Source: an uncultured Gammaproteobacteria bacterium
Lineage (GTDB): Bacteria; Patescibacteriota; Microgenomatia; UBA12405
Assembly: GCA_964448705.1 (NCBI GenBank)
Contig: CAYUZS010000002.1
Coordinates: 113,577 to 177,576, forward strand
Length of the DNA stretch: 64,000 nucleotides
Reading direction: 5' to 3'
The position numbers and the translations under genes were made by a program. The notes below the pieces were generated by a model. The model searched no databases, was not told where the DNA came from, and saw nothing but the letters and a program-made list of their open reading frames with translations. This document shows positions 3,544 through 44,222 of the stretch, one piece after another (position 1 is the first letter of the stretch; every line of letters begins with the position of its first letter).

Positions 3544-4447
3544 AATTTAAATTTTTAGATAAAAAACCAGTAATAAACATTATACCGTAGTATAGATGGG
3601 TACAGGGGATAGTAATTACAGCCAGGATAGAAATTGAGAGTTTATTTTTCTTTAACAAGAATGAAATAAAGGTGACAATTAATAATAATAGATATAAAAA
3701 AAGGAAAGGATAAAATTTGGTAAAAGGGAGAGTGAGGATATAAAGAAAAAAGATACTAGGGATAAAATAACCAATTCTTCGGCTAGTTTTGGGATAAAGT
3801 TTGGCAAAATTACCACGATGTTTGGCGTATCTGGTTATTTGTTGAAGGTGGGGAAGAATTACTTTCCGACGGTGATGATAAACAATGACTGACGGATGGT
3901 AATAAATTTTTTTGTGAAGTTGATACACAAGGTCGTGGCAAAGAATGGTATCTTCACCAGGCCAATGATGAGTATTAAAACCTTTTACTTTAACAAAATC
4001 AGATTTACGGACTATAAGATTTACCGAGGGATAGTCATCGACAAATCTGGCCGGTGAGACTAAATTACGATAGGTGCCGGCTCCCCCGCTGCCAAGGTAG
4101 CTAGACCATACTAAACCGGATGCTTGTTGAAGAACACTATCATGCGGAGGAGTTAGACAAGGACCGCAAACAGCGGCCAGAGAAGGTTTAAAAATATGAC
4201 GGGCATTTTTAAGCCAATCCGGTGAAGGATATGAATCATCATCGAGAAAAGCAAGATATTTTCCTTTGGCTTTTTTGGCACCAAGATTTCTTTTGATGGC
4301 CGGACTAACCGGTCCGGAAATTTTGTCAGTGATAACTAAAATTTCAAATGAAGTAAACGATTGTCGGGAAAGGTGTTTGATAGTTTCTCTTAGATAGGGA
4401 GTCTCGGTTCGTACAGGAATTATGATTGAAAAGAGTGGTTTTTTCAT
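3500..4447 (-). CDS. Glycosyltransferase family 2 with C-terminal transmembrane region
   Basis: FSIIIPVRTETPYLRETIKHLSRQSFTSFEILVITD and AFLDDDS are GT2 motifs. The C-terminal ~90 aa are hydrophobic. Confidence 0.75.
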   Translation of the reverse strand: MKKPLFSIIIPVRTETPYLRETIKHLSRQSFTSFEILVITDKISGPVSPAIKRNLGAKKAKGKYLAFLDDDSYPSPDWLKNARHIFKPSLAAVCGPCLTPPHDSVLQQASGLVWSSYLGSGGAGTYRNLVSPARFVDDYPSVNLIVRKSDFVKVKGFNTHHWPGEDTILCHDLVYQLHKKIYYHPSVIVYHHRRKVILPHLQQITRYAKHRGNFAKLYPKTSRRIGYFIPSIFFLYILTLPFTKFYPFLFLYLLLLIVTFISFLLKKNKLSISILAVITIPCTHLYYGIMFITGFLSKNLNFVPHKANEKGYLGG

Positions 4448-5274
4448 TAACCTAAGTTAATACGCATTTTTAAATCCTGATCATATTTCCATTGGCGTTT
4501 ATTTTTATCGTCGTAATAATGGAGAATACGCAGTCGATAAAAAATTGCCAGGGCATCGACAAGAGATTTGAAAATTGTTTTGATGCCGGTGGCGTGAGTG
4601 AGACTTGAAAAAACATATTTCAATTTAACAGGAGCTTCGTAAATTCTGGTGAAACCAAGATAATTAGCGACAGAAAGAATCTCCAAATCGAAGGCATAAT
4701 TTTTAACCAACAACCGCGGCAAAACTTTAACTAAAACTTTTCTTTTAAAAATTTTTAAGCCGGCCTGGGTATCTTTGACACGAATTCCCAATAAAAAACG
4801 GGAAATGATTTGGGCTCCAAAACTAATGATTCTCCGGTCGAGAGGATAATTTACAACCGAGGCAGGGTGGCGTTTTGAAGCGACGATTATATCAGCATCA
4901 TACCATTCCAAATGTTCAATTAAGAGTGAAATACCGTTAGGGTCTATTTCCATACCGGAATCGATAAAAGAAATATAGTCACCTTTGGTATGGGCCATGC
5001 CATATCTGACGGCATAACCTTTACCATGATTATGTTGATAGCCAATTACTTTTAAATTTTGATTTCTAATTGATTTGGCAATTTTAAATGATTGATCGAC
5101 TTTTATACCGTCAACTACAGCAATAACTTCATATTGATAACGAATCCGATCCAGGCTGTAGAGAATAGTGGAAAGATCATCGGCAATAGTTTTTTCCTGT
5201 TTATAAACTGGAACGATGACCGATATAAAATGGGAATTATTTACCATAAGATAAAGCCTGTTCATAGGCAGCAA
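4447..5274 (-). CDS. Glycosyltransferase family 2
   Basis: ISVIVPVYKQEKTIADDLSTILYSL...VIAVVDG has a GT2 N-terminal signature. Confidence 0.65.
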   Translation of the reverse strand: MLPMNRLYLMVNNSHFISVIVPVYKQEKTIADDLSTILYSLDRIRYQYEVIAVVDGIKVDQSFKIAKSIRNQNLKVIGYQHNHGKGYAVRYGMAHTKGDYISFIDSGMEIDPNGISLLIEHLEWYDADIIVASKRHPASVVNYPLDRRIISFGAQIISRFLLGIRVKDTQAGLKIFKRKVLVKVLPRLLVKNYAFDLEILSVANYLGFTRIYEAPVKLKYVFSSLTHATGIKTIFKSLVDALAIFYRLRILHYYDDKNKRQWKYDQDLKMRINLG

Positions 5275-7122: not shown

Positions 7123-8721
7123 CTAGTTTGTGTATATTTTAAAACTTTGACCGGTTATTTGATAGTCAGCGGAGTCGATCACTAAAGAATTTTGAGGGAT
7201 ATTTTCGGGAATACTAAAAAAGATGTTATCAATTTTAGAAATGGTTGAAAAACCAAATTTATCGGGAGGAGTTAACTGACTTTGAACCTGAAAATCTTTT
7301 GGTGGATATTGAGAAAAGAATAAATAAAGAATATATGGCTGATCATATTTATCGGTAATATAGACTTGTTCATAATTAGCTTTTTGTGATTCAACATATG
7401 GGACAAGGGAATCAAATCCGGTGTTCCAGGCAAACGAATATTTTTGGGGGGATCGGATAAAATAAGAGTCAAAATAATAGCCGAAAGAATAGAAGTATAA
7501 AAAGGATAAGATAATGAGAAGAATTTTTTGAGATATTCCTTTAGAGGAAAAGAAACTTAGTAAGCCATAAACACCAGAGGCGATAAAAACAGAGATGGGA
7601 ACAGACATCGGCAATGCCCGGAGAGCCGAGGGCGCCTGGAATGTTAAAGATGAGGCGAGAGGACCGATTAAAAGCCAAAGGAGCATTAATTTACCTAAGG
7701 CATTAGTCTCCCGACGGCTGATTAAAAATATTAGGCCGATGATTAAAAGAGGTATTTCAAACAAATATGCCTGCCCCATGTCCGGAGATTTTGACCTTGG
7801 AACTTCGTCCCCATTTAAGAATAAAAAATTAAAATCAAAATGAGATGTATATTTTTGAGCCCAGGATAAACCATATAGAATTCTTTTATTGTGAATCAAG
7901 CGATAAACAATATCGACACTACCGTGTTGGTTTAATAGTTCTTCGGCTCGAGCAGTGGGCCCGTAATCAGCGGTTAAACCGACTCCGTTGAATCGGGCGG
8001 TTCCACCATTATTCAGAAAAGAAACTATTACCGGAATAGTAAGAACTACAGCAATAAGAAAAGAGAAAATTGAGCGGGGTAAATTTTTAAGAAATAAATT
8101 TTTATTAAAAATAATAATAATGAAAACCAGAACGGGGATAACAATTCTGGCGGAATGATAGACATAAAGGGAAGCAACAAACGGCAGGGGAAATAGAAAA
8201 AGATAAATGTTTTTTTGACGAATAAAATAAGAATACAGCCAATAAACACCCAAAATTAATAAAAACAAGGCAATGGAAGTTTCCCAAGCACCTCTGGAAA
8301 AATGAATATGCCATGGGTTAAGAGTTAAAACCAGAGAACTTAATAAAGATAAGGATTCAGATTTGGTTAACAATAAAACCAGCCGATAAAGAATAAAAAT
8401 AGTTAAAACTGAAAGAATCAAATTCGGCAGACGAATGGCTAAAACATTTAAGCCTAAAAATTTAATAAACGGTAAAGCCAAATAAACATAACCACCGGGT
8501 TTATAGTCGCCGAAGGATTCAAAATGAAGAGGCCAACTGTGTCCATGTTCGTCTTTACCGGTTTCCAAAAGTGAATAGGCATTGTAGCCCAAAGCGGCCT
8601 CATCGGGATTTAAAGCCGGTAGAGTGTTAATTTTGTAGCCTCTAATCAGAAAAGCCAAAAATAGAATAATAACCAGAATAATTTTAGGGTGTTTCATAAG
8701 CATAAAATGAAGAATGGCCAT
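7123..8721 (-). CDS. GT-C membrane glycosyltransferase, GT39/PMT/ArnT-like (paralog 1); likely start near 8697
   Basis: Polytopic membrane protein. The first-loop motif is NPDEAALGYNAYSLLETGKDEHGHSWPLHFESFGDYKPGGYVYLALPF. The DE acidic motif lies in a loop after TM1, as in PMT/ArnT GT-C enzymes. A soluble C-terminal domain carries QPYILYLFFSQYPPKDF. Confidence 0.7.
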   Translation of the reverse strand: MAILHFMLMKHPKIILVIILFLAFLIRGYKINTLPALNPDEAALGYNAYSLLETGKDEHGHSWPLHFESFGDYKPGGYVYLALPFIKFLGLNVLAIRLPNLILSVLTIFILYRLVLLLTKSESLSLLSSLVLTLNPWHIHFSRGAWETSIALFLLILGVYWLYSYFIRQKNIYLFLFPLPFVASLYVYHSARIVIPVLVFIIIIFNKNLFLKNLPRSIFSFLIAVVLTIPVIVSFLNNGGTARFNGVGLTADYGPTARAEELLNQHGSVDIVYRLIHNKRILYGLSWAQKYTSHFDFNFLFLNGDEVPRSKSPDMGQAYLFEIPLLIIGLIFLISRRETNALGKLMLLWLLIGPLASSLTFQAPSALRALPMSVPISVFIASGVYGLLSFFSSKGISQKILLIILSFLYFYSFGYYFDSYFIRSPQKYSFAWNTGFDSLVPYVESQKANYEQVYITDKYDQPYILYLFFSQYPPKDFQVQSQLTPPDKFGFSTISKIDNIFFSIPENIPQNSLVIDSADYQITGQSFKIYTN

Positions 8722-10264
8722 TAATAGGACTTAAAGGGGTTAATAATTTTAAATCAATGTTTTGCCGAAGAGCATCGTCGTAAGTAAGGATCTGAAGAAC
8801 TCCGGGGACTGTTTTTAAATAAGAAAAATCCGGGGTTTTAAAAATAAAGTTATCAACTTGGGCAACTTTACCGGTATCCAAACCGGTTGAAATTAAATTG
8901 GCCTGTTTTTGGTACGAAGCCGGATCATGTCGACTGATAAACAAATAATAAATATAAGGTTGGCCGTAAAAATCTGAAAAATAAACGGTCTTGTTTTGGC
9001 TGTGTTGAAGAGCGTAGGACATGGCCGACTGATAGCCATACAACCAATGATCGGGTTTAACTTTTACCATGTGAGAGTAATAAAGATCGGTGTAATAGAT
9101 AAAACTTAAAAGATAAGCCAGAAAAATTGTTAAATAGACTATTTTTTTTGAAAAGCGATTAATTATGAATTCAATACCGCAAGCAGCAAAATAAATTATG
9201 GCAATGCTAAGAGATAGTGTCCGAACCGGTTGAATAATATCCAAAGTTAAAGCTCCCGGCAAAGGCGAAACCAGAAGCCATATTAGAAAAAAACGAGATA
9301 GAAGAGTTACAGGTTTGGAAAGAGTAAAAAATAAACCGATAACAAAAAATAAAACAGTGGGGTACAAAAATGCGCCAATATAAGGAGCCGACTGACGGCC
9401 GATCTGCCAATCCCCTTCAAAAGCTAAAAATCGAGGTGAAAAATAATTGAAATATCTAAGAAAAAAATTTCTAGCAAAGAAAACGACTTCTGAATGATAA
9501 AGACGATAATTAAGGCTGCCTGATTCTTTTAAAATTTCGGCCACTTCAGTTTCAGGTTGATGATATGACCACAGACCAAAGACCTGAAGACGGTTGGAAT
9601 CCGAGCCAAAGAAAAGACCATAGGCGATAGGCAGAGCAAGTAAGAAAAGCGGCAGTATGAACCTGATCAGCAACTGTTTGAAATTTATTTGTTTATAAAA
9701 AGTAAACAAAAGAGCAAGAATCAGTAAAGGAGACATAATTTTTCCACCCTGATAGGTATATAAAGTGGCAGCAAAAACCAAAGAAGAGAAAAATAATTTT
9801 TTAGAAAGAAAAAGATAAGCAGCGGTTAACAACTCAAATAGAAGGACATTCGTTTCCCAACCACCGCGTGAATAATGAATATTCCAAGGGTTGAAAGCGG
9901 TTAAAGCGGCAGCAATTAAAGCCAGACGTTTATGCTGCGGGAAAAATTTAACAATTAATAAATAAAATATAAAAGGTAGAAGAGAACCTAAGATTACAGA
10001 AGGCAATCTGACGGCTAAAGGAGTTGGACCAAGAATGGCAACGAAGGGAGCAGTTAAATAGATATATAATCCGGGTTTGTAATCACCAAAAGACTTGAAA
10101 ATATAGGGCAAAAAACGGCCGTATTCATCACGTCCGGTTTTTAATATGGAATAAGCATTATAGCCAATTGAAGCTTCGTCCCAAAGAAGCGGAGGATAAT
10201 TAATATTAATTATCCTGATAAAGAATCCAAAAATGAGAATAAGTAGAAGTAGTTTTTTATTCAT
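8684..10264 (-). CDS. GT-C membrane glycosyltransferase, GT39/PMT-like (paralog 2)
   Basis: WDEASIGYNAYSILKTGRDEYGRFLPYIFKSFGDYKPGLYIYLTAPF. The C-terminal domain carries YGQPYIYYLFISRHDPASYQ. Confidence 0.7.
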   Translation of the reverse strand: MNKKLLLLILIFGFFIRIININYPPLLWDEASIGYNAYSILKTGRDEYGRFLPYIFKSFGDYKPGLYIYLTAPFVAILGPTPLAVRLPSVILGSLLPFIFYLLIVKFFPQHKRLALIAAALTAFNPWNIHYSRGGWETNVLLFELLTAAYLFLSKKLFFSSLVFAATLYTYQGGKIMSPLLILALLFTFYKQINFKQLLIRFILPLFLLALPIAYGLFFGSDSNRLQVFGLWSYHQPETEVAEILKESGSLNYRLYHSEVVFFARNFFLRYFNYFSPRFLAFEGDWQIGRQSAPYIGAFLYPTVLFFVIGLFFTLSKPVTLLSRFFLIWLLVSPLPGALTLDIIQPVRTLSLSIAIIYFAACGIEFIINRFSKKIVYLTIFLAYLLSFIYYTDLYYSHMVKVKPDHWLYGYQSAMSYALQHSQNKTVYFSDFYGQPYIYYLFISRHDPASYQKQANLISTGLDTGKVAQVDNFIFKTPDFSYLKTVPGVLQILTYDDALRQNIDLKLLTPLSPINGHSSFYAYETP

Positions 10265-11882
10265 GAATTAAAATATCAAAGGCCGGAGTTCCATCCAAAA
10301 AATTAATTGTTTTTATTAGTTTAAAACTTTGAGAAGGATAAGTACCAGGACTGGTGATTAAGAGACTATTCGGTTTGAATGAAGAGTCTTTTATTTCCCA
10401 GTCATTAATAAATACAAATTTATCGAAACCATCGATCCAATACCAATCGGCATGATTATTCCAGTTGAGATTAGGATCTGATTGATACTTGACTGGATCC
10501 CAGGGCCAATAAAAAAGAATAAATTCGTGCGGTTCGCCATATTTTTTAGTGAAATATATATGCTGATATGATGAATAGTTTTCTTTTAAATAGTCGACTG
10601 CCTGCTTGTAGCCATATTGCCAGGAAGAAGAATATTGAACATTATAATTGAGATAGTTTTGCCAATAAGAAATAAACTGAATAACGGAAAATATGATAAC
10701 CACAGGATAGAGGAAAAATAACTTTTTGGTATTTAAAAGAGACAAGCCATAGACTATTGAAAGAAAGTAAAAAGGAAGAGCAATAGTAGCTCTGATTGAG
10801 GGAAAATCACCGACAGTGAGAGCAGCTGGCAGCAAGCAAATTAAAAAACTGATTAATATTTGAAGATTTAGGTGTTTATTTTTAATTCCCAGAATTAATT
10901 TCAATAAACCAAGATAGAAAAAGGGTAAAAAGACAAAATAGATTAAACCAGTTTGAGGTGGGTTAAATTGATAATTTTGGGAACCAGTAAAAAATATCGG
11001 AAGCGGATTGATTAATGAAAGATAGTTGACAAAAACGGTCTGAGTAAAATAGACAACTTTATTATTAAGAGCAACATTCAAAAAATAAGGACCTGTAAAG
11101 AGACGCCTTTTTTCGTTAATTAAATTTATGGAATTCGGATTTATTATGCCAACCCAGCGATTTCTGGCGGCAGACTCCGGTGAAAACAAGTTAAATAAGT
11201 TAGGCAGGGCTAATATTAGAAAAATAGAAAGTGAAAGGAGAAGAGAAAGGCGATTGGTTTTAAAAATAGATTTGAATTTTGCCCAGTTCATGAAAACCAA
11301 AATCGGCAGCAAAAGCGGAACAATAATTCTGGTGTTATGATAGGAGTAGAGTGAAAGAGCAAACAGAAAAGAAGAAAGAATTAACCAACGCGTTTTTTTA
11401 AGTCCATGGTAAAAAAATATCAATCCGGCCAGTAATAAGGTTTGAGAAAAGTCCGATTGGAAAACAGCTCTGGAAGGAAAAAGATTCCAGGGAGTAATGG
11501 CGGCAATAAACATTGCAATCAGAGCTAGATAATTATTTTTGATAAATATTCTGGTGAAGAAAAAAACTAAGACGACAAAAATAGTGCTGAAAATGGCTGA
11601 AGGCAGCCGGATGCTGAGAGCATTAAGGCCTAAAAATTTTACAAAGGGAATAGTAAGATAAAGATTAAAAGTGGTCGGATAATCACCATAAGCCCGAAAA
11701 TTAAAAATAGGCCAACTGACTCCCCATTGATCTTTACCGGTTTGGAGAAGGGAATAAGCATTGTAACCATGGGAAATTTCATCCCAATTTAAGGAAGAAG
11801 GCAGAGTATCCAGATGCCAGAATCGGAAAAAAACAGCAATCAAAAAAATAAAAATAAAAATTAGTTTATGAATGTTTTTCAC
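10257..11882 (-). CDS. GT-C membrane glycosyltransferase, GT39/PMT-like (paralog 3)
   Basis: WDEISHGYNAYSLLQTGKDQWGVSWPIFNFRAYGDYPTTFNLYLTIPF. The C-terminal domain carries YGEPHEFILFYWPWDPVKYQ. Confidence 0.7.
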   Translation of the reverse strand: MKNIHKLIFIFIFLIAVFFRFWHLDTLPSSLNWDEISHGYNAYSLLQTGKDQWGVSWPIFNFRAYGDYPTTFNLYLTIPFVKFLGLNALSIRLPSAIFSTIFVVLVFFFTRIFIKNNYLALIAMFIAAITPWNLFPSRAVFQSDFSQTLLLAGLIFFYHGLKKTRWLILSSFLFALSLYSYHNTRIIVPLLLPILVFMNWAKFKSIFKTNRLSLLLSLSIFLILALPNLFNLFSPESAARNRWVGIINPNSINLINEKRRLFTGPYFLNVALNNKVVYFTQTVFVNYLSLINPLPIFFTGSQNYQFNPPQTGLIYFVFLPFFYLGLLKLILGIKNKHLNLQILISFLICLLPAALTVGDFPSIRATIALPFYFLSIVYGLSLLNTKKLFFLYPVVIIFSVIQFISYWQNYLNYNVQYSSSWQYGYKQAVDYLKENYSSYQHIYFTKKYGEPHEFILFYWPWDPVKYQSDPNLNWNNHADWYWIDGFDKFVFINDWEIKDSSFKPNSLLITSPGTYPSQSFKLIKTINFLDGTPAFDILIHE

Positions 11883-13479
11883 GGATTACTTTGATTATAA
11901 ACAGGGAAATGGCTAAGAGACTAAGTGAATTAGCAATAGTCCGAATAGGGGTGTTGCGAAGATGGAGTTCGAAAGCATAGTTTCCGGTGGGAAGATTCAG
12001 TTGAATTAAACCAAGCTGTGGTTCTATTTTAATATCCTGGAGAGAATTGTTTATTTTTAACTCCCAATTCGGGAAATAAACCATAGGCAGATTAATGACG
12101 GCATAGTCGGATATAACATCCAAACTACCTTTAGCCTGATGACTATTTTTGGAAAAAGAGAGGTTGCTTACCTCTCCTGATTCAATCGAGGGAACGCCGG
12201 AAGAAAATTGGTCGGGAAAACCGATGGAGTAGTTTGGCCAATAGTCTTTTAAACCGGCACCGCTTTGTCTAATAATTTCTGAGGTAGTTAATTTCTGAGA
12301 ATCAGATAAATTTTGATACCAAATATCTTCTTTAAAATAATTAAAATTTAATAAATATGCAGCGGCAATAATGATAAAAGTAAGAAAAACGGAAAAACGT
12401 TTTAAGGGAGCAATTAAAACAAAAGCACCTGAAATTAGTGAGAAACAAAAAACAGCCAGACCGAGAAAACGCCAGGGAAATTGATAATAGGCCATAAACG
12501 GCAATAGCTGCCAAATAAAAGTTGATTTATTGTGGGTTAAAAATAGAGCTAAAAGACCAATGAAAAATCCACTTAGAATCAGCCAACGATGTGATAACTT
12601 TTTATTAAAAAATGTATAGATGACAACTACTAAAGGCAGAATCCACTGAAGATAACCGATCTGAAAGGACATGTCATCCTGAGGACCCCATAGAGATGCA
12701 CCGTAGCCCCAAAAGCGAGAAAGAAACAACTCGGAAATAGTAGTGAAATGATTAATGTAGCTGAAATAACCCTGAGTCATGGTATCGACAGTAACTAAAT
12801 TTTTTTCCAATAAAGCCGGCAAGAGGAAAAAGGAAGACATAAGAAAAGCCAGAACGGAATTAAGGATTAAATTTTTATTGATGTTTTTGGTTAGAAGAGA
12901 AAAAATTAAAACTAAAGGAACAGCGTATAAAGCAGTCAAATTGTGGCTTAAAAGAAGAAAAAGGAGAGAAACGATATAGAGATTGGATTTTTTGGAAAGC
13001 AGAGCAAATAAAACTAAGGGAATAAAACTGAGCGCCCAATATTCGCCTAACGCTCCCCTGACAAATCCATCAACAGCCTGATATGGAGCCAGAGTATACA
13101 AAACGCTGCTGACTAAACCACCAGCCGGACCAAATAAGAAGTTACCTAAAAGGTAAGTAGAAACGGAACGAATTAAATTTGGAATTATAAAAACAGCTTT
13201 AATACTGTTGATATAATCCAGACCGGTTAGATGAAAAGCTTCGGCAACCAGGTACGGAAGAGGTGAATAATAATTGTAGAGCGGATAACCATAACCAAAT
13301 CCCCCATCAGCAATAAAACGACAGGGAATTTGACCATCATGAAGACAGCTATCAAGCTGCTGCAATCTAAAAATCTGAATATCATCCTGCATGGAAAAAT
13401 AGCCCGGACGAAAGAGTCTTAAACTAATTGAAAAACCGATAAACAGAGAAATCAAAAGGAATATTTTACTTTTGTTCAT
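11866..13479 (-). CDS. Large polytopic membrane protein, family B (paralog of 30072-31859); putative glycosylation-associated
   Basis: N-terminal MQDDIQIFRLQQLDSCLHDGQIPCRFIADGGFGYGYPLYNYYSPLPYLVAEAF aligns with NMHDDMQLIRQLEMEKCFNDGQIPCRWTPDLGYGYGYPLFNFYPPLPYLVGQIF of the other copy. The C-terminal ...LHLRNTPIRTIANSL... matches the other copy as well. It may belong to the PTPS-related membrane-protein family, but that is an unverified recollection. Confidence 0.5.
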   Translation of the reverse strand: MNKSKIFLLISLFIGFSISLRLFRPGYFSMQDDIQIFRLQQLDSCLHDGQIPCRFIADGGFGYGYPLYNYYSPLPYLVAEAFHLTGLDYINSIKAVFIIPNLIRSVSTYLLGNFLFGPAGGLVSSVLYTLAPYQAVDGFVRGALGEYWALSFIPLVLFALLSKKSNLYIVSLLFLLLSHNLTALYAVPLVLIFSLLTKNINKNLILNSVLAFLMSSFFLLPALLEKNLVTVDTMTQGYFSYINHFTTISELFLSRFWGYGASLWGPQDDMSFQIGYLQWILPLVVVIYTFFNKKLSHRWLILSGFFIGLLALFLTHNKSTFIWQLLPFMAYYQFPWRFLGLAVFCFSLISGAFVLIAPLKRFSVFLTFIIIAAAYLLNFNYFKEDIWYQNLSDSQKLTTSEIIRQSGAGLKDYWPNYSIGFPDQFSSGVPSIESGEVSNLSFSKNSHQAKGSLDVISDYAVINLPMVYFPNWELKINNSLQDIKIEPQLGLIQLNLPTGNYAFELHLRNTPIRTIANSLSLLAISLFIIKVIREKHS

Positions 13480-15085
13480 GTGGAGTGATGATTAAAAATT
13501 GAGGCGAGGTGAGATATCTTTTTTCAGTTTGAGAGATGATATCAAACGATGATTTATTGGAAAGAGACTGATATTCATCGCCGGTGATGACATAAACCTG
13601 AGAAGCGGTTGAAGGAATTTTATCCATATTAAGATGGCCAAAATAATAATTATTGTTTAAAGCGGTGCCATCAAAGAAATCGTTTTGGAGATGAGACAAT
13701 TGGTCGGAAAGAGATTTAGAGGGTGAAGAGTAATAGGGAGTATAGAAAAGGAAGAAAGGCATAAATGGTTCGAAACTATCGGAGAAATAAATATCATTTC
13801 CCGGATATTTGGAAGTTAAAAGGATTGCATCTTTCATGCCGGTGTGCCATGTAGCGGCAGAAGACTGAGGATAGTGAATAGTATAGTAATGGGCAAAATT
13901 TAAAAAAAGCAAAAAATATAGAGGCAGTAAAAACTTTTTTTTATTTAAACCAAGATAAGAAAAGTAGATCAACGAGGGAAGCATTAAGATTAACCGGGTG
14001 GCATGGGGAGAAAGGGAATCACGGGTTAGAGAATAGGGAATGGGAGCCAGAATCAACAGCCAAAAAAATAAAGAACCGATTTTGGTTGGTTTTTTAAAAT
14101 AAATAAATATTCCCAAGGGGATAACAAATAAGTCGAGCAAATATAATAATCCATGCCCGCCAAAACCATGACGAAGATTGTCGTCGCCTTTGAGAAACAA
14201 AAATGAGGTAGAGAAAGAAGAAACATAATTTTCGACAAATTTTTGAGCAACTAACTGATACTTGTTGTGTAATATTTTGGAAATAAAGGATGTTTTTACA
14301 CCAACTTCACCGTAATGATTTAAAAGGACATCTTCATATCGAAGATGGTCGGTTACCTGCTCCCGATGGGGTTGAGTAAAAATACCAATATAGGAAAATC
14401 TGAAACCACTTTGACCGGAAAAGGTATCAATGGCTAAGGGAGTTAATAAAAGTAAACCTAAAATTATTCCGGAAAGTAAATGGAGAGGAAGCATTTTTTT
14501 AATATCAGAACGCCAGATAATGAGGATTAACAATAGAAGTATGGGTAAGAATAAATTGGCGGTGCTGTAGAAATAAGGAGCTTGAACGAAAGCGATGACA
14601 GCCAACAATAACCAAGATAATTTATGATTTAAAAGATATCTTTTCCAAAAATAGATTCCGGCCAGTAGAAACATAATCATGCCCGATACTTCAAATCCTG
14701 TTCGACTGTAATGTATAGCCCACGGTGAGATGGCTAATAAAAAGGATGCCAGAGGGGAATTGGTGATCAAATATATTAAAATTACTGAAAGAACACCAAA
14801 AACTGCTGAAGGCAGACGAACAGAAAGTTCCGGACTGAAGCCAATTTTTTGGAAAAAGGCAATACTATATATAAGGGAAGGAGTTCTCCAATCGGAGAAA
14901 GAATGAAAATGAGAAGGAAATTGGTTGCCAAAATAGTCTGATTGAGAGTGATTGAAAACCAGGGCTTGATAGCCGGCATCAACTTCATCTGAAAACAAAG
15001 CCGGAGGAAAATTACTTAAATTAAGGAAACGACTGAAGACAGCTATAAGCAAAATTAAGAATAATATCGATATTTTAGTTTTCAT
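13466..15085 (-). CDS. GT-C membrane glycosyltransferase, GT39/PMT-like (paralog 4, divergent)
   Basis: SDEVDAGYQALVFNHSQSDYFGNQFPSHFHSFSDWRTPSLIYSIAFF keeps the DE..GY...F.SF.D....Y pattern. It has multiple TM segments and a conserved C-terminal domain. Confidence 0.65.
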   Translation of the reverse strand: MKTKISILFLILLIAVFSRFLNLSNFPPALFSDEVDAGYQALVFNHSQSDYFGNQFPSHFHSFSDWRTPSLIYSIAFFQKIGFSPELSVRLPSAVFGVLSVILIYLITNSPLASFLLAISPWAIHYSRTGFEVSGMIMFLLAGIYFWKRYLLNHKLSWLLLAVIAFVQAPYFYSTANLFLPILLLLILIIWRSDIKKMLPLHLLSGIILGLLLLTPLAIDTFSGQSGFRFSYIGIFTQPHREQVTDHLRYEDVLLNHYGEVGVKTSFISKILHNKYQLVAQKFVENYVSSFSTSFLFLKGDDNLRHGFGGHGLLYLLDLFVIPLGIFIYFKKPTKIGSLFFWLLILAPIPYSLTRDSLSPHATRLILMLPSLIYFSYLGLNKKKFLLPLYFLLFLNFAHYYTIHYPQSSAATWHTGMKDAILLTSKYPGNDIYFSDSFEPFMPFFLFYTPYYSSPSKSLSDQLSHLQNDFFDGTALNNNYYFGHLNMDKIPSTASQVYVITGDEYQSLSNKSSFDIISQTEKRYLTSPQFLIITPHEQK

Positions 15086-15109
15086 TTTCTCCTTCTTTAT
15101 TTTATACTA

Positions 15110-16492
15110 ATGCCAATGAAAAAATGGTTGGCAGTAATTTTATGGCTACTGGCATCAATAAACAGTCTGATAACGGCAATAAGTATTAACTATCCGCCAA
15201 CAGGGGAACAATTGGCGGTACTTAACGGCATGAAACTGTCTGGAGAAACAAACTTGTGGATTTTAAGAATAATCACCTTTTTAATGTTGGGAATCAGTTG
15301 GTGGTGCTGGTATGTTTTGATTTCTAAAGTTGATAAAAAGTTGGCATTTTGGACGATAACCGTTTTATCAATATCACCGGTAACTTTGATATTAGGGCTT
15401 ATTCACCCGATTGTGACGTTTAAAATATTGACAGTATCCATAGCCGTCTATTTTTTATTTCATAAAAATCTGGGTTTGAAACAACAGTGGCTGGTTTTTT
15501 TGATTTTGGCAGTATTTAGCGTACTATTTAACATTTTTGTGATTAAGAATAAACCGGCGATATTCAGTAAACTGTCGATTACGGAAGCTCAGGTAGAGGT
15601 TACTAAAAGATTTACCAATGAAGACAGTTTAAATACTAAAATTGAGCTGCCTTTATGGTGGAGGCGGTTATCTTACAATAAATATTTCTTTGTCTATAAA
15701 AGAACTTTAGCGGAAACACTCCCCTTCTTTGATTTTGAATCCTTATTTTTTCAGGAAGTTCACCCTTTGGAACAAAAGTCGGTGGTTATGTTTTACTGGA
15801 TAGAGTTTTATTTGTTTTTGATGGGAATTTATTTTTTTGTTAAAAATAAAGATGTATTTTTAAGAAGAATTTTGATTTACGGAATACTGCTATCGTGGGT
15901 AAATTTTGTCTTCTCGGAAGGACCGGCTTATCTGAGACTTATTTATTTAACACTGCCAATATCGCTGGTTATTTCAAAAGGTTGGATGGAATTGGCACAA
16001 GCAGCTAAAAATAAATATGCTTTAGCATCGGTTCTGTCGCCGATTGTTTTTATACTAATAATTTTTGCTATTCAAGTGAACCATATTGATTTGAGGGTCC
16101 GTACCCAAAAATGGTTTGATAACCGACCTTTGGCCTATCAGTTTTGGTTTGAAAACCTAAAAAAAATTGATTATCGTAAATATGAAAAAATTCAGATAAC
16201 AACTTTAATCGGCGATGCCAAATCATATTGTTTATATTATTTGGGTGATGACTGTAATCAGGAAAAATATGTTTTTAACAGTTTTGACTTAAGCCAGGAA
16301 AAACCGACTGATCATGGTATATATGCCGGTTTTTCAGGAGAATTTGCTGGTCCGGATTTTAAAAACCAAATTTCTGCCAATTGGAAAGAAGTTTCTGTCG
16401 ATAAAGGTTTGGAATTTGTAGGGACAATGAATTTGAACGACAATATTGCCGACAAATTTGGAAACGATATTGGTTTGGCAGTAAAAAAATGA
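15110..16492 (+). CDS. Membrane protein with GT-C-paralog-like C-terminal domain but no DE loop motif
   Basis: After TM1 the sequence INYPPTGEQLAVLNGMKL stands where the paralogs have INYPPLLWDEASIGYNAYS. The C-terminal soluble domain carries DAKSYCLYYLGDDCNQEKYVFN, resembling the QPYIYYLF...DP..Y domain of the GT-C paralogs. Confidence 0.5.
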   Translation: MPMKKWLAVILWLLASINSLITAISINYPPTGEQLAVLNGMKLSGETNLWILRIITFLMLGISWWCWYVLISKVDKKLAFWTITVLSISPVTLILGLIHPIVTFKILTVSIAVYFLFHKNLGLKQQWLVFLILAVFSVLFNIFVIKNKPAIFSKLSITEAQVEVTKRFTNEDSLNTKIELPLWWRRLSYNKYFFVYKRTLAETLPFFDFESLFFQEVHPLEQKSVVMFYWIEFYLFLMGIYFFVKNKDVFLRRILIYGILLSWVNFVFSEGPAYLRLIYLTLPISLVISKGWMELAQAAKNKYALASVLSPIVFILIIFAIQVNHIDLRVRTQKWFDNRPLAYQFWFENLKKIDYRKYEKIQITTLIGDAKSYCLYYLGDDCNQEKYVFNSFDLSQEKPTDHGIYAGFSGEFAGPDFKNQISANWKEVSVDKGLEFVGTMNLNDNIADKFGNDIGLAVKK

Positions 16493-18153
16493 AAAATAAA
16501 TTAAGAAATCTGATATTTTTGGTAATTGTGATAATCGGCATAATAATCCGATTTGCCTCATTGGATAAGTCTCCGCCGTCATTAGGTTTTGATGAAGCAT
16601 CACTGGGATATAACGCCTATTCAATCATGAAAACAGGCAAAGATGAATATGGAAACTTTATGCCGATTTCATTACGTTCTTTTAATGATTTTAAACCGGC
16701 TTTGTACGCTTATTTAAGTATTCCTTTTATATATTTTGGCGGCCTTAATGATTCAACAGTGAGAATGGTTTCAGCATTAGCCGGCAGTGTGTCACTGATT
16801 TTTTTGTTTTTTCTGTTGAAGAAATATATTAAAAATAAATGGCTGGCGGTTGGAATATTTTTACTGCTATCCTTTGAACCATGGAGACTGCACTTTTCCA
16901 GAAATGCCTTTGAAACTCATTTATCAATGTCGCTTTTTACTATCGGTTGCTGGTGGCTTCTGGAAAAAAAGAAAAAGTTTAATAAATTCTGGGCAGTAAT
17001 ATTTTTAGGGTTGGCAGCATACAGTTACCATTCGGCCCGATTAAGCGGTCCACTATTATTAATATTTTGGCTTTTAGACCCAATTAAGTTGTCATTCCGC
17101 AAAGATTTTTTTGTAAAACTAGGAAATTTTGTAAAAAATAATATATTTAAATTTTGGCCGGTATTCGGATTAATTTTAGTATGTGTACCTATTTTTTTAA
17201 TGAACAGCGGTAATTTAGTGTTGACCAGATTTAACCAAGAAAATGTATTTCAAAGATATTTTCCTTATGCTCCAAAAGAAATAGCTAACCCATTAAGTTC
17301 GGCGTATTACCTAATGGGGATAATCAGCGGCCACGTGTTTTCCAATATTTCACCCATAAATTTAAACTGGAGAATTTTTCAATGGGTAAAAATGTCTCCA
17401 CAATTTATTCCGGGGATGGGAATGCTAGGATGGCTGGAAGGAATATTTTTTATTATCGGTCTGACGGAATTGATTAAGATGATAAAAAAATCGAGTAAAC
17501 ATCGATTTCTAGTTTACTGGATTATTGCCGGAGCGGCACCTTCGGCAGCGACATGGACATGGTTTCACCCTTTAAGATCCCTGAATATTTATCCGGCGAT
17601 GGAGATAGTGGTAGCCATGGGAATTCAAAAAATACTTAAAGAACTGAATGCGGCACGAGTTAACCGAATTATTAAAACGGGAGCGATAGCCGCGGGAGTG
17701 GTGATTTTGGGATTAACAACGGTGTTTACAATAAATAATGAATTACTGTACAGTGCCTATGAAAATCACGGTGAATATCAACCTGGCGGTTACAAAGAAG
17801 GAATGCCATTTTTAAAAAGCATTCAGGATAATTATGACCAAGTAGTCATTGATACCCCGCACGCCCAGCAATTTGTATTTTTAATGTTTTATGAACAAAT
17901 GGATCCGACTTTTGTGCAAAAAATTGCCGATATTAGACCAAAACCGGGAATAGAGGGTAATTTAACCTTTAATTTCGATAAATTTGTATTTAGAAAAGTT
18001 GATTGGCCACAAGATCAATTTCTTAAAAAAACAGTTTTTTGGACTGATCAGACGATCTCTTCAGAAGAAATAGAAAGAGTACCGGGAAATAAATTGAGGA
18101 TGAAAGTAGACAACGCACTTTATCAGGCTGCTGATATAATTACCACAGAATAG
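16489..18153 (+). CDS. GT-C membrane glycosyltransferase, GT39/PMT-like (paralog 5)
   Basis: FDEASLGYNAYSIMKTGKDEYGNFMPISLRSFNDFKPALYAYLSIPF. The C-terminal domain carries HAQQFVFLMFYEQMDPTFVQ. Confidence 0.7.
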   Translation: MKNKLRNLIFLVIVIIGIIIRFASLDKSPPSLGFDEASLGYNAYSIMKTGKDEYGNFMPISLRSFNDFKPALYAYLSIPFIYFGGLNDSTVRMVSALAGSVSLIFLFFLLKKYIKNKWLAVGIFLLLSFEPWRLHFSRNAFETHLSMSLFTIGCWWLLEKKKKFNKFWAVIFLGLAAYSYHSARLSGPLLLIFWLLDPIKLSFRKDFFVKLGNFVKNNIFKFWPVFGLILVCVPIFLMNSGNLVLTRFNQENVFQRYFPYAPKEIANPLSSAYYLMGIISGHVFSNISPINLNWRIFQWVKMSPQFIPGMGMLGWLEGIFFIIGLTELIKMIKKSSKHRFLVYWIIAGAAPSAATWTWFHPLRSLNIYPAMEIVVAMGIQKILKELNAARVNRIIKTGAIAAGVVILGLTTVFTINNELLYSAYENHGEYQPGGYKEGMPFLKSIQDNYDQVVIDTPHAQQFVFLMFYEQMDPTFVQKIADIRPKPGIEGNLTFNFDKFVFRKVDWPQDQFLKKTVFWTDQTISSEEIERVPGNKLRMKVDNALYQAADIITTE

Positions 18154-18154
18154 T

Positions 18155-19375
18155 ATGAAAAAAATATTGCTATTAGCGGCGAGTTTGTATTTTTTCCTGG
18201 CACCTTTGACTTACCATCCGGATACAAAACTAGTGCTGTATTATCCAACTTTAAACAACGGCAGAGTGTGGGATATTTATACCTATTTAAACGAGAATGC
18301 CAATGCCGCCCCGAAATTTCATTATCCTCCGGCACATTTTTGGCTGTTAAAGGCAGAATTGCCGGTAGTTAAATTAATCGGAGGAAATCAAATTGTAAAA
18401 TGGCTGAACACCGGCGGGAACATCGCTTTCAGAGATGAAAATATATTTTTAAACAATTTAGCTGTTAAAACACCACTATTAATTTTAGTTTTAATTTCCG
18501 GCTGGTTGATATTTAAGATAGCGGTTAAAAACGGATATAATTTAAAATTTGCAAAAGCAGCGGCAATAATCTGGCTATTTAATCCAATAACTTTATATTC
18601 AGCGGTGATAATGGGTCAGAATGATATTTTGGCCTTACTCCCCTTTTTAATCGGTTTATGGTTTTATTTTGACCATCCTTTTTGGGCATTCACCTGGTTT
18701 GGACTGGCGGGAAGTGTAAAAAGTTATCCTTTGTTATGGGCGTTAATAGCCGGATTGATTTATCCAAAAAGCGGTTGGATTAAAAAAATATCTTTGGCAA
18801 TGTGGCCGATAATAATCTACATAGCGACAATGTTACCTTTTATAAAATATCCATACTTTCGAGAAGATGTTTTGTACAGCGGATTATCAATCAGAATGTT
18901 TGACAGTGCGATTAACATCGGTTTAGGAGACAAAGTTTTACTAGTACCGATGCTGTTGGTGGCTTTGACTCTAATCGGGATTAAAAATAATTTAGGTAGA
19001 AACCTAAAAAAACTAACATTAATTTTGATGTCGGCGACGATGATAATTTTAGGATTTACTCATTTTCATCCGCAATGGTTTATCTGGATTATGCCATTTA
19101 TGGCTTTACAGTTTGCAACTGAAGAAAAACAGCGGCAATGGTGGCTGATTTTGCCGGCATTATTAATAATAATTTTATTATTTGAGGACAAATTCTTGTA
19201 CTGGGGATTGATTTCACCGATTAATCAGGAAGTAATTAATTTACCTTTGATTAATGAGTGGTTGAATTTGAAAGGGATAGATACGAGTCTACTGAACAAT
19301 CTAGCCCATTCAATTTTGGCAGGTTTTGGAATTTATGGATTATTTAATGCGGATAAAAAAGATGATGAAAAATAA
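18155..19375 (+). CDS. Polytopic membrane protein, unknown family (about 10 predicted TM)
   Basis: Hydrophobic throughout. It sits between two GT-C paralogs on the same strand. No diagnostic motif was recognised. Confidence 0.45.
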   Translation: MKKILLLAASLYFFLAPLTYHPDTKLVLYYPTLNNGRVWDIYTYLNENANAAPKFHYPPAHFWLLKAELPVVKLIGGNQIVKWLNTGGNIAFRDENIFLNNLAVKTPLLILVLISGWLIFKIAVKNGYNLKFAKAAAIIWLFNPITLYSAVIMGQNDILALLPFLIGLWFYFDHPFWAFTWFGLAGSVKSYPLLWALIAGLIYPKSGWIKKISLAMWPIIIYIATMLPFIKYPYFREDVLYSGLSIRMFDSAINIGLGDKVLLVPMLLVALTLIGIKNNLGRNLKKLTLILMSATMIILGFTHFHPQWFIWIMPFMALQFATEEKQRQWWLILPALLIIILLFEDKFLYWGLISPINQEVINLPLINEWLNLKGIDTSLLNNLAHSILAGFGIYGLFNADKKDDEK

Positions 19376-19952
19376 GCGAATAATTAGAATTGGGTTGGGT
19401 TTGGCGACAGCGCTGATTATTTATATGCTGACGATAGCGATAGTATCTTTATTACCAAGCAAGATAAGTATCGAAACAAAAGGAAATAATCCGGAAGTAT
19501 TTAATAAAATTGCCGAGATAGAAACATATGAAGAAATGTTTACCGCAGAACACAATCATTTAAATAGAATTGAGGCGCTGTTTAAGAACCCAAACCTGGA
19601 AAGCAGAGACGAATTGGAAATATCTTTAATCGATAATCAAGGATTAACAGTTGCCAGTCAACAATTCAGCGGTTTTAATTTAGGTGATACCTCTCATGCG
19701 AGAATGGATTTTTCTCCCCTAACAAATTCAGAAGGAAAAAAGTACATCATCAAAATAGAGACTAAAAAAATAAATGATGGAATGCTTAGTTTTGGCACTA
19801 AGGATGGTCATCTTGATTTTATTCAATATTACAATCAAAAAAGCGGTTTTGATTTGATGATTAAAAATATGTCTGAAGCAATCAATAAAATTTCTAAACA
19901 GCCAGTGGTGGTGATATTACCGATGGTATTATGGATATTATGGTTATGGTGA
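19362..19952 (+). CDS. Membrane-anchored hypothetical protein (N-terminal TM plus soluble domain)
   Basis: The ORF track gives 19326-19952. An internal start MMKNKRIIRIGLGLATALIIYMLTIAIV fits better with the upstream stop at 19375. Confidence 0.4.
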   Translation: MMKNKRIIRIGLGLATALIIYMLTIAIVSLLPSKISIETKGNNPEVFNKIAEIETYEEMFTAEHNHLNRIEALFKNPNLESRDELEISLIDNQGLTVASQQFSGFNLGDTSHARMDFSPLTNSEGKKYIIKIETKKINDGMLSFGTKDGHLDFIQYYNQKSGFDLMIKNMSEAINKISKQPVVVILPMVLWILWLW

Positions 19953-21553
19953 AATTTTTTAAAGAACACAAATGGCTGATAGGAATATTGATATTGGCAG
20001 CTATAGTCAGAATTGTTGGAATTGATTATTTGGAATTATTCGGCGATGAAATAGATGCAGGATACCAATCGTATTCGTTAATGACGAACGCAAGCGATTA
20101 TAAGGGACATTTTTTACCGACATATATGCAAAGTTTTTCCGAGTGGAGAGCTCCGGGAATGATGTATGCCATGGTTCCGTTTATAAAAATATTCGGATTA
20201 AATGAGTGGGGAGTACGTTTGCCGGCGGCATTATGGGGATTAATGAGCATAGTCGGATTTTATTGTTTACTCCAACTGAGCGGAATAAATAAAAAGACAG
20301 CCTTATGGTCAACATTCTTTTTAGCGATTGCTCCCTGGCATATTCAATACAGTCGGGCGGCATTTGAAATTACCCTGCTGGCTTCAGAAATAATTTGGGG
20401 AACATTTTTGTTGATAAAGGGGATCAAAACTAAACGAAATATTTTTATAATCGGAGCGGGATTAGTTTTGTCACTTGGTTTTTATACCTATAACACCGCG
20501 AATATTTATGTCCCATTAATTTGTCTTTTAACTTTGATTTATTTTAAAGCCCACAAAAAACAATGCTTGGTTTTAATAATATCGGGAATAATTTTTAGTC
20601 TACCAATCGGCTACCAGATATTATTCGGACATGCTTCTGAAAGATTTAAAACTATATCCATATTTAACAACAAAGAAGTGATTGCTGAAGTAAATGAATA
20701 CCGGAACAAGGATAATATTTCACTGGTATCCAAAGTTTTTTATAACAAACTGACTATGGGCGGAAAAAGAATTCTGTTTAATTATTCAAATGCATTTGGG
20801 AGTAATTTTTTATTTTATGAGGGTGATGTTACCTTTAGACACTCTTTACATCAGGTCGGTAACTTATATTGGATTTGGCTGCCGGTAATTATAATCGGTT
20901 TAATATCAGCCAATAAATACTGGCTATGGTTGTTAATGATTACTCCCATCCCCTCCTCGCTAACAATTGATGGATATAACCATGCCACCAGATTGTTGAT
21001 GATGATTTTTCCTTTAGTATATTTAGCCGGTTTAGGAATGTCTAAAGTTAAAAATATATTTAAGGTAGGAATATTGACAGCGACAATATTAAGTTTTGGC
21101 TTTTATCAATACTATTATTGGAATTTTTACAGAAGTGAATCATGGAGATGGTGGCACGTAGGATATAAGGAAGCAATGAATTATATTTCCGATAACAAGA
21201 CTAAATATGCAAAAGTGATAATGGATAATACCTATGAACCGACGGTAGCAAAGTATTTATTTTGGAATAAAATTGATCCCAAAGATATTTTTAATATGGA
21301 CGACAAAATGGATAAAGACATAGACGGTTTTCAGGGATTTTGTATGGATGAGAGAACCTGTTTTGTTAATTACGGACAAAATTTTAAAGTAGAAAATCTG
21401 AAAAGTAAGACTTTATATTTAATCTCTCAGGATAGGAATGTGGGCGGTGATTGGGATTGGACGACATCGGCACCGGAAGGCATTAAGGTTCTTAAAACGG
21501 TACGAAATTATGAAGAAAAACCAATTTTCTATTTAGTCGAGAAAAGCGAATGA
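19931..21553 (+). CDS. GT-C membrane glycosyltransferase, GT39/PMT-like (paralog 6)
   Basis: FGDEIDAGYQSYSLMTNASDYKGHFLPTYMQSFSEWRAPGMMYAMVPF. The C-terminal domain carries YEPTVAKYLFWNKIDPKDIF. Confidence 0.65.
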   Translation: MDIMVMVKFFKEHKWLIGILILAAIVRIVGIDYLELFGDEIDAGYQSYSLMTNASDYKGHFLPTYMQSFSEWRAPGMMYAMVPFIKIFGLNEWGVRLPAALWGLMSIVGFYCLLQLSGINKKTALWSTFFLAIAPWHIQYSRAAFEITLLASEIIWGTFLLIKGIKTKRNIFIIGAGLVLSLGFYTYNTANIYVPLICLLTLIYFKAHKKQCLVLIISGIIFSLPIGYQILFGHASERFKTISIFNNKEVIAEVNEYRNKDNISLVSKVFYNKLTMGGKRILFNYSNAFGSNFLFYEGDVTFRHSLHQVGNLYWIWLPVIIIGLISANKYWLWLLMITPIPSSLTIDGYNHATRLLMMIFPLVYLAGLGMSKVKNIFKVGILTATILSFGFYQYYYWNFYRSESWRWWHVGYKEAMNYISDNKTKYAKVIMDNTYEPTVAKYLFWNKIDPKDIFNMDDKMDKDIDGFQGFCMDERTCFVNYGQNFKVENLKSKTLYLISQDRNVGGDWDWTTSAPEGIKVLKTVRNYEEKPIFYLVEKSE

Positions 21554-26062: not shown

Positions 26063-27015
26063 AAATTTTTAGTAATCCGATTTAATAAATGTCTAATTTT
26101 AATAAAGACCAATTTAAAAATATTGCCAGAGTACTCTTCTTTAAAATATTTAGTAAACCAATAACTATATTCAAATATTGTTTCCTGACTGGCAGAAACA
26201 AAAGATTCTTTGGAGAGAACTTTATCGGAGGAACCTTGTTTTTCCCAAAGACGAACATAAATTAATAAAATGGCAAAAGCTTGCAACAAGGAAAAAACTA
26301 AACCATGAATTCCATCTTTATATCCACCGGCGGCAAAAAAACGACTATTGAATTCCTGAGTTGGTTTTAATATAAAGTCCGAAGTTTTGAGTTTATAGCC
26401 GGAGGCTTTTAGCTCGTCAGCCTGAACACCACTGTAACGAACGGCCCGGTTAACAAATTGAGTGATACTGTCGTAATTATGATGTCTAATGGCCAGTTTT
26501 TCGGTGTCCAGAATGGTTAAACCATTGCCTTTAGTTTCCGGTTGGCTGTGGATTATTTTACTCCAGGTGACATGGCCTTTTTTGAAAAATCTAATAACGT
26601 AATCCGGCCAGGTACGGGAATGACGAAGCCATTTACCAAAAACTAGGTTCTTACGGGGTATTTTTACCCAATCAATATCGGATCTTTTGGTAATACTTTT
26701 TAATTCCGATTTTAAAGTTTTGTTTAAGTATTCATCCGGATCGAGAAGGATAATCCATTTACCGGTGGCTTTGGAAAGAGCAAAATTTCTAGCAGGTTCG
26801 ACAACTGTGGTCCAACGATAGGGATAAACTATAGCACCATATTCGACAGCAACATTATCACTGCCATCAGTAGAATGCATGTCGACGACAATAATCTCAT
26901 CAGCAAAATTCTTGAGTGATTTTAAACATTTTCTGAGGTTTTCAGCTTCATTTCTAACATTAATTACTGCTGATATTAAGGGTTTATTTTTCATAAGGTA
27001 CTGATAGTTTATCAC
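26059..27015 (-). CDS. Glycosyltransferase family 2
   Basis: ISAVINVRNEAENLRKCLKSLKNFADEIIVVDMHSTDGS. Confidence 0.8.
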   Translation of the reverse strand: MINYQYLMKNKPLISAVINVRNEAENLRKCLKSLKNFADEIIVVDMHSTDGSDNVAVEYGAIVYPYRWTTVVEPARNFALSKATGKWIILLDPDEYLNKTLKSELKSITKRSDIDWVKIPRKNLVFGKWLRHSRTWPDYVIRFFKKGHVTWSKIIHSQPETKGNGLTILDTEKLAIRHHNYDSITQFVNRAVRYSGVQADELKASGYKLKTSDFILKPTQEFNSRFFAAGGYKDGIHGLVFSLLQAFAILLIYVRLWEKQGSSDKVLSKESFVSASQETIFEYSYWFTKYFKEEYSGNIFKLVFIKIRHLLNRITKNF

Positions 27016-44197: not shown

Positions 44198-44222
44198 AAT
44201 TCATTTTAGCATTCAAAAGCGT

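Follow-up and report, generated by a model that had tools for sequence, protein, structure and literature searches.

A Conserved Array of GT-C Fold Glycosyltransferase Paralogs with a Family-Specific C-Terminal Domain in a Microgenomatia Genome

Introduction

Extracytoplasmic glycosylation is generally described as the joint work of a polyprenyl-phosphate sugar synthase, a flippase, and a GT-C enzyme, and some GT-C enzymes bear extra extracytoplasmic domains that bind the acceptor (PMC11127046). In this study, a family of seven GT-C paralogs and one degenerate copy, most of them gathered in a single array, was analyzed in a 64,000-nt stretch of DNA (hereafter, the window; contig CAYUZS010000002.1 of the assembly GCA_964448705.1, positions 113,577-177,576 of the forward strand). 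The source is titled Gammaproteobacteria, and its GTDB lineage is Patescibacteriota; Microgenomatia; UBA12405. All coordinates given below are window positions. The fold, mechanism class, and automated annotation of the proteins are conventional, and the enzyme class is known. The Microgenomates-wide array, the family-specific C-terminal domain, and the maintained degenerate paralog are undescribed as far as the literature searched shows. Nothing specific on this array in Microgenomates or the candidate phyla radiation (CPR) was found there; multi-copy dolichol-phosphate mannosyltransferase annotations were remarked on in passing for Peribacteria (PMC4736985).

Comparison with Described Systems

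The array proteins resemble ArnT (GT83; PDB 5F15, 5EZM) in their GT-C_A fold and in the acidic residues placed just after the first transmembrane (TM) helix, in the first outside loop. Like the array proteins, ArnT ends in a small soluble alpha/beta domain that lies on the outer side, but it has 13 TM helices against the eleven predicted here. The two differ in sequence (11% identity, with no sequence-level match), and the ArnT acceptor, lipid A, is implausible in a monoderm CPR bacterium. The GT39 protein O-mannosyltransferases (PMT, PF02366; PDB 6P2R for Pmt1-Pmt2 and 9E61 for Pmt4) share with the array weak PMT/PMT_2 matches and an Asp-Glu pair at the start of loop 1. Unlike them, the array proteins have neither MIR nor PMT_4TMC domains, several copies score under the Pfam cut-offs and one is not matched at all, the C-terminal domain is family-specific, and PMT is structurally no nearer than ArnT, ALG12, and STT3.

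The three-component systems (GtrA/GtrB/Gtr* of Shigella and Salmonella, GacI/GacL, CsbB/GtcA/YfhO, and GT136) likewise combine a GT2 enzyme of the GtrB/ArnC/DPMS type with a GT-C enzyme in one glycan locus. YfhO-like proteins are interleaved in the present locus, and extra extracytoplasmic domains occur on some GT-C enzymes of such systems (PMC11127046). They contain, however, one GT-C enzyme per system, compared with seven predicted active paralogs and one degenerate copy here, and no small flippase of the GtrA/SMR or MATE type was found in the window. Several GT-C paralogs acting outside the membrane and bearing C-terminal extracytoplasmic domains are also known from the mycobacterial EmbA/B/C, AftA-D, PimE, and Mpt enzymes, which have distinct linkage specificities, use polyprenyl-phosphate sugars, and bind acceptors through their C-terminal domains. 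In contrast to the array proteins, they are much larger, contain recognised carbohydrate-binding modules, show no sequence similarity to the array, and belong to a different phylum with a different envelope.

Homology of the Seven Paralogs

Paralogs 1 (7123-8721, 532 aa), 2 (8684-10264, 526 aa), 3 (10257-11882, 541 aa), and 4 (13466-15085, 539 aa) are encoded on the minus strand, and paralogs 5 (16489-18153, 554 aa) and 6 (19931-21553, 540 aa) on the plus strand. A preliminary description of this DNA had listed these six open reading frames (ORFs) as proteins of 526-554 aa, and all of them are present in the positions and orientations reported. Paralog 7 (49497-51047, minus strand, 516 aa) is an unlinked copy among housekeeping genes; its longest ORF runs to 51221, and the alignment together with the conserved N terminus puts the start at 51047.

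An all-against-all BLASTP comparison of 50 ORFs of at least 150 aa, none lying inside a longer ORF, connected the seven proteins at 24-35% identity over about 430-560 aligned residues (E 1e-14 to 1e-76). The family hidden Markov model (HMM) scored them at 412-803 bits (537 bits for paralog 1), values which are not independent, as the alignment used to build the model included the seven proteins. It gave no score to other hydrophobic low-GC membrane proteins of the window, namely the two YfhO-like proteins, the Wzx-like protein, and a 551-aa ORF. The seven-way alignment contains 22 invariant columns, including D40, E41, Y46, D57, G60, P64, R97, P136, W137, R143, and R368 (numbering of paralog 1; that of paralog 2 is used for D29, E30, and the other residues named below).

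The region has a GC content of 35% and encodes very hydrophobic proteins, which would suit an explanation of the shared motifs as artefacts of low-GC membrane coding, the ORFs being unrelated or partly decayed duplicates with no function. However, the BLASTP E-values, reaching 1e-76 over the full length, and the silence of the family HMM on equally hydrophobic low-GC proteins indicate that the similarity is homology and not composition. Moreover, orthologs with 36-64% identity were found for every slot in dozens of genomes, and the AlphaFold2 (AF2) model described below is confident. Already refuted by BLASTP, the family HMM, the ortholog slots, and the tree, the artefact explanation retains practically no likelihood, and the earlier grouping of the six copies with the ORF at 49497-51047 into one family is borne out. 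The GYNAYS...FGDYKP loop that was thought to unite them is found in five copies; paralogs 4 and 6, which group together as a divergent-loop subtype, carry DEVDAGYQ...SFSDWRTP and keep the invariant residues only.

Fold and Family Assignment

Paralog 2 was the copy modelled. In comparison with PDB structures, the closest similarity was to ArnT (score 20.1; 388 residues aligned, 11% identity), followed by ALG12 (19.7), STT3B (18.8), AglB (17.3), Pmt4 (16.9; 18% identity), Pmt2 (15.8), PglB (15.6), and the group of AftD, AftA, AftB, PimE, and EmbA (8.7-14.3). Foldseek gave the same set of GT-C enzymes, with Pmt1 ranked 25th (E 0.25). According to this model, the seven proteins are polytopic glycosyltransferases of the GT-C fold (GT-C_A type), having the polytopic architecture common to ArnT, PglB/STT3, PMT, and the ALG enzymes; by both structure comparison and Foldseek, they correspond to the GT-C transferase component of a three-component system. 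Searches of the PDB by sequence matched no chain, either with the family profile of 50 sequences (E up to 1) or with the paralog 6 protein (E up to 10), so that fold comparison is the sole tie between the family and the solved enzymes.

The initial GT39/PMT label was not supported. The Pfam PMT model (PF02366) was passed narrowly by three of the seven proteins (26.7 bits in paralog 1, 28.0 bits in paralog 5, and 25.8 bits in a third copy, against a cut-off of 22.7), while the other four had no PMT match. The PMT/PMT_2 matches as a whole straddle the curated cut-offs (for PMT_2, 27.8 bits in paralog 5, 38.8 bits in paralog 4, and 40.0 bits in paralog 6). Paralog 3 has no Pfam match at E <=0.01 and none at all to a GT-C model; its membership is based on BLASTP, the alignment, and the family HMM, as is that of paralog 7. 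No sequence relationship to characterised PMTs was found in the PDB, although Pmt1, Pmt2, and Pmt4 are deposited, and ArnT, ALG12, and STT3 are structurally closer. The MIR and PMT_4TMC domains were not detected with Pfam, and the corresponding outside loop has about 78 aa. Bacterial PMTs likewise are not known to carry MIR, and its absence alone is compatible with a bacterial-type PMT. Sub-threshold NCBIfam matches (Agl23, repeat-unit polymerase, LA_3751) were discarded as fold-level noise.

It is unlikely, in our estimate, that the paralogs are bacterial protein O-glycosyltransferases of the PMT/GT39 type. Such enzymes would transfer a hexose, e.g., mannose, from polyprenyl phosphate to Ser/Thr of secreted, pilus, or surface-layer proteins, either in the course of export or afterwards, each paralog serving a different set of proteins. 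The three copies above the PF02366 cut-off would agree with this, as would the opening of the loop with Asp-Glu, found also in yeast Pmt1, and the genes for SecA, a sortase, and a DUF11 surface-type protein in the window; on the other hand, ArnT, ALG12, STT3, and AglB are structurally nearer than any PMT, Foldseek placed Pmt1 only 25th, and neither the family profile nor the paralog 6 protein found a PDB sequence match. The undetected MIR and PMT_4TMC domains and the polysaccharide-type character of the nearest neighbors (Wzx-like, GT2, GT4, YfhO-like, LCP) also speak against this reading.

Topology and Active-Site Residues

The topology, read from the helices of the paralog 2 model combined with hydrophobicity, comprises 11 TM helices with the N terminus inside. 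According to Lys and Arg (K+R) counts over 50 family members, the proposed inside loops contain 0.31 K+R per residue and almost no Asp or Glu, the short outside loops 0.12, and the loop following TM1, which bears the Asp-Glu pair (DE loop), 0.06. By this distribution, the DE loop (aa 23-84 of paralog 2; 10013-10198, minus strand), the C-terminal alpha/beta domain (aa 400-526; 8687-9067, minus strand), and the long fourth outside loop of about 78 aa are predicted to face outside.

In the alignments, D29, E30, Y35, D46, G49, P53, and Y69 are invariant within the DE loop. D29 and E30 stand directly after TM1 and are invariant in the seven paralogs and in the 50 family members. In our reading of the alignment against the topology, the invariant polar residues (D29, E30, Y35, D46, R86, and R348) are all located in outside loops or at outer helix ends, which matches the GT-C active-site position. 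Acidic residues of the first outside loop after TM1, a feature of GT-C enzymes, are present in all seven paralogs and missing from the copy at 15110-16492. The preliminary description had put the DE dipeptide where GT-C enzymes have their catalytic acidic residues; its position directly after TM1, outside according to the positive-inside rule and consistent with the GT-C fold, agrees with that proposal, and the counts did not bear out a cytoplasmic placement.

C-Terminal Domain

The C-terminal domain was matched by no Pfam or NCBIfam model at E up to 10, and no solved structure related to it was found, in agreement with its first description as uncharacterised. The (Q/E)PY(I/V)xYLF core then proposed for it proved to be loose, and only one Gly and one Phe are invariant within the domain. 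A profile of the domain matched 1853 proteins at E <=0.001 among 1.84 billion cluster representatives, 477 of them at <=1e-10. It was situated at the C terminus in all but two of the best 150 listed; the complete proteins have about 505-634 aa, and the shorter ones look like fragments. Being nearly always C-terminal in proteins of family size, the domain is family-specific. By analogy with the Emb, AftD, and GT136 enzymes, a function as an acceptor-binding module is plausible.

Organization of the Array and the Degenerate Copy

The array is not an uninterrupted run of six paralogs and is interleaved with four conserved genes for other membrane proteins missed in the preliminary description (11866-13479, 15110-16492, 18155-19375, and 19326-19952). 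The ORF overlaps of 8-38 nt reported between the paralogs are correct for the longest ORFs, but several of them involve non-family neighbors.

The gene at 15110-16492 (plus strand) encodes an eighth, degenerate paralog of 460 aa, which matches the family HMM at E 1e-9. In a profile-profile hhalign comparison, a profile of 12 orthologs of this protein aligned with the family at 97.8% probability (E 6.7e-13; aa 48-378 to 134-444). With a single sequence, hhalign had returned only 6.8% probability, the match becoming significant once the 12-ortholog profile was made. The protein keeps the 'NYPP' end of TM1, TM4-TM11, and the C-terminal domain, at least its first part; it lacks the catalytic DE loop of about 60 residues and TM2-TM3. 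In its orthologs, found at the same position in 12 Shapirobacteria-type loci, the Asp-Glu pair is not conserved. Judged by sequence, it is most simply read as a catalytically degenerate yet maintained paralog, i.e., a candidate pseudo-glycosyltransferase.

The 24-bp gap noted between the two arms (15086-15109) has the size and position given in the preliminary description; it separates paralog 4 from the degenerate copy and not from paralog 5. The gap is occupied by the GGAG Shine-Dalgarno/ribosome-binding site of the minus-strand paralog 4 gene. With only 24 bp between the divergent starts and this site filling them, both promoters must sit within the opposite coding sequence. A consensus scan for promoters and terminators around the gap revealed nothing exceeding the shuffled background.

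The gene at 11866-13479 (minus strand) encodes a non-family polytopic membrane protein of 537 aa, YfhO/PTPS_related-like (PF10131, 29.1 bits), which has a paralog at 30072-31859 (minus strand; 37.5% identity by BLASTP). Its BLASTP relatives comprise 42 ORFs in related loci, and the 25 listed are nearly all at the corresponding position. On the plus strand, the genes at 18155-19375 (a 406-aa polytopic membrane protein, conserved in 22 loci) and 19326-19952 (a protein of about 200 aa whose two ends carry hydrophobic segments) have no assigned family. Neither these two proteins nor the degenerate copy gave a Pfam or NCBIfam match even at E up to 10. A GT-C assignment is not claimed for the 18155 protein, its hhalign comparison with the family being insignificant. 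In 16-22 related loci, the two genes occur as a pair beside the GT-C array, and both orientations are found.

Distribution and Age of the Family

Full-length homologs with 50-70% identity occur in Candidatus Shapirobacteria, Woesebacteria, and metagenome-assembled genomes of Microgenomates, under the names 'phospholipid carrier-dependent glycosyltransferase' (NCBI) and 'ArnT-like' (JGI). A 56-kb Logan contig encodes a protein identical to the paralog 2 product and shares the gene order. A scan using one genome per species recovered at least 596 loci; among the best 80, the named ones, judged by record title, are nearly all Microgenomates-type CPR or 'Patescibacteria group'. In the 43 related loci longer than 20 kb, the family has from 3 to 7 copies per locus (median 6). 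Microgenomates loci hold such a set of 3-7 copies within about 21 kb.

The order of the paralog 3-, paralog 2-, and paralog 1-like genes is kept in nearly all tabulated related loci, and an ortholog of paralog 1 fills the corresponding slot in essentially every related locus. Every copy resembles its counterpart in the window (36-64% identity) more closely than it does the other window paralogs. Shapirobacteria keep the divergent pair of paralogs 5 and 4 with the degenerate copy in the middle, and their orthologs of paralog 5 show 51-65% identity at the same divergent position. In a neighbor-joining tree, the orthogroups, that of paralog 3 included, each contain Shapiro-, Woese-, and Amesbacteria sequences; thus, the duplications predate these lineages, and the slots have been kept. 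Together with the common gene order, the tree agrees with the earlier suggestion of an old, maintained family.

Many of the best 80 loci are titled 'uncultured Gammaproteobacteria', two 'Candidatus Parcubacteria', and one 'Clostridia'. Loci L011, L012, L014, L016, and others titled 'uncultured Gammaproteobacteria bacterium' (binchicken, SRP co-assemblies) carry the Microgenomates-type array with 50-57% identity. The Gammaproteobacteria and Clostridia titles are probably taxonomic mislabels of the deposits.

Glycan Island and Proposed Function

The array belongs to a glycan island (1-37.6 kb) that contains two B12-radical SAM genes, many GT2 and GT4 genes, a Wzx-like MOP flippase gene (28646-30100), three further GT-C-type (PMT_2-type) genes, and the gene for the second YfhO-like protein. 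Beyond it are the genes for an LCP ligase, FtsEX, and a sortase, and housekeeping genes. Three GT2 genes on the minus strand encode candidate polyprenyl-phosphate sugar synthases: 36903-37628 (best solved relatives ArnC, E 9e-17, GtrB, E 8e-15, and DPMS), 33355-34125 (GtrB, E 5e-12, then DPMS and ArnC), and 4447-5274 (DPMS, E 8e-11, and GtrB, E 8e-10). They provide the locus with the GtrB-like GT2 component of three-component systems. This content (the Wzx-like, GT2/GT4, two YfhO-like, and three PMT_2-type proteins and the LCP ligase) fits the decoration of a glycan outside the cytoplasm with sugars from polyprenyl-phosphate donors.

The favored interpretation, which we place at about even chances, is that the seven GT-C enzymes add sugars from outside the membrane, in distinct linkages, to a cell-wall-associated glycopolymer. 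This would be glycosylation of the three-component type (PMC11127046), with the GT-C component multiplied into a linkage-specific set. Each enzyme would reside in the cytoplasmic membrane with its N terminus inside, draw one sugar unit from a polyprenyl-phosphate-linked donor at the outer leaflet, and move it onto an extracytoplasmic acceptor, taken here to be the cell-wall-associated glycopolymer. Catalysis would proceed via the invariant Asp-Glu pair and other acidic and basic residues of the first and neighboring external loops. The lipid-linked donors would be made by the three GtrB/ArnC/DPMS-like GT2 enzymes. For the polymer itself, the flanking GT2 and GT4 enzymes would carry out the cytoplasmic start, the Wzx-like flippase the export, and the LCP ligase the final attachment. 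The linkage or branch formed may differ from paralog to paralog; the C-terminal alpha/beta domain, specific to the family and lying outside, may help to hold the acceptor; and the eighth copy, which has no catalytic loop, may act as a non-catalytic partner.

Several observations weigh against this proposal. The best Pfam label is that of protein O-mannosyltransferases, and Pmt4 has the highest identity among the structural matches (18%), which would favor a protein acceptor. The catalytic roles suggested for D29 and E30 rest on position and the modelled fold, with no sequence match to a solved GT-C enzyme, and the C-terminal domain has no similarity to known carbohydrate-binding modules. An initiating phosphoglycosyltransferase was not found in the window, nor was a small GtrA/SMR or MATE flippase. 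The interval 480-43779 has no gap left without an assignment, and the small ORFs at 43784-44597 do not look like membrane proteins with several passes. The proteins encoded at 18155 and 27012 could be flippase substitutes, and the 18155/19326 pair could represent the missing flippase or another accessory component.

A further possibility, that the paralogs act in making or modifying a glycolipid or lipoglycan anchored in the membrane, as ArnT does with lipid A or the PimE, Mpt, and Emb enzymes with phosphatidylinositol mannosides (PIM), lipomannan (LM), and lipoarabinomannan (LAM), appears quite improbable. Neither a protein nor a polymer linked to the wall would then be the acceptor. PimE, AftA, AftB, AftD, and EmbA are among the structure matches, and GT-C sets of several paralogs are usual in mycobacterial lipoglycan assembly (PMC11127046). 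However, the window yielded no gene of a lipid A or phosphatidylinositol pathway, the LCP ligase and the Wzx-like exporter point to a wall-linked polymer, and the likeness to ArnT, at 11% identity, is one of shared fold only. No lipid A is expected in monoderm bacteria of this kind.

A more far-reaching interpretation is that the seven GT-C enzymes, the degenerate paralog, the YfhO-like protein, and the 406-aa and 200-aa pair constitute a Microgenomates-specific extracytoplasmic assembly line. We regard it as rather unlikely. If true, lipid-phosphate monosaccharides would be assembled outside the cell into most of a complex surface heteroglycan, in the manner of mycobacterial arabinan; the C-terminal domain would be a previously unseen acceptor-binding module and the degenerate copy a scaffold or an acceptor-presenting pseudo-enzyme. 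The glycan could then be the main factor in host attachment for episymbiotic bacteria whose genomes are about 1 Mb in size.

CPR/Patescibacteria genomes are tiny, and the island takes up about 4% of a genome of about 1 Mb. This share, together with the conservation of the GT-C array over several candidate phyla, argues that a complex, externally assembled surface glycan is central to the biology of these bacteria, possibly to host contact. Knowledge of how GT-C enzymes work is unaltered by the array; what the family offers is a naturally diverged GT-C set for the study of donor and acceptor specificity, an uncharacterised extracytoplasmic domain, and a natural pseudo-enzyme paralog.

Other Genes of the Island

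The three further GT-C-type proteins (31887-33377, 34155-35486, and 35473-36906, minus strand) represent a different subfamily without the C-terminal domain. Those at 31887 and 35473 match Pfam PMT_2. The protein at 34155 has no Pfam match, and its sole link to them is its BLASTP paralogy with the one at 35473. Counting the array and both YfhO-like proteins, about 13 GT-C-type genes lie within 51 kb of the window. The 551-aa ORF at 27012-28667 (minus strand), directly downstream of the Wzx-like gene, has no Pfam match even at E up to 10 and could encode a polymerase- or ligase-type membrane protein.

Two adjacent genes for B12-binding radical SAM enzymes are located at the island edge (480-3543, minus strand). 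In the related locus L003, the pair adjoins the same GT2/GT4 block, with a Methyltransf_21 gene between the two; the enzymes may be involved in sugar methylation or another modification. Right after the glycan island, on the opposite strand, a gene at 37727-38359 (plus strand) encodes a DUF11-repeat protein of the surface-protein type, possibly a glycosylated surface protein.

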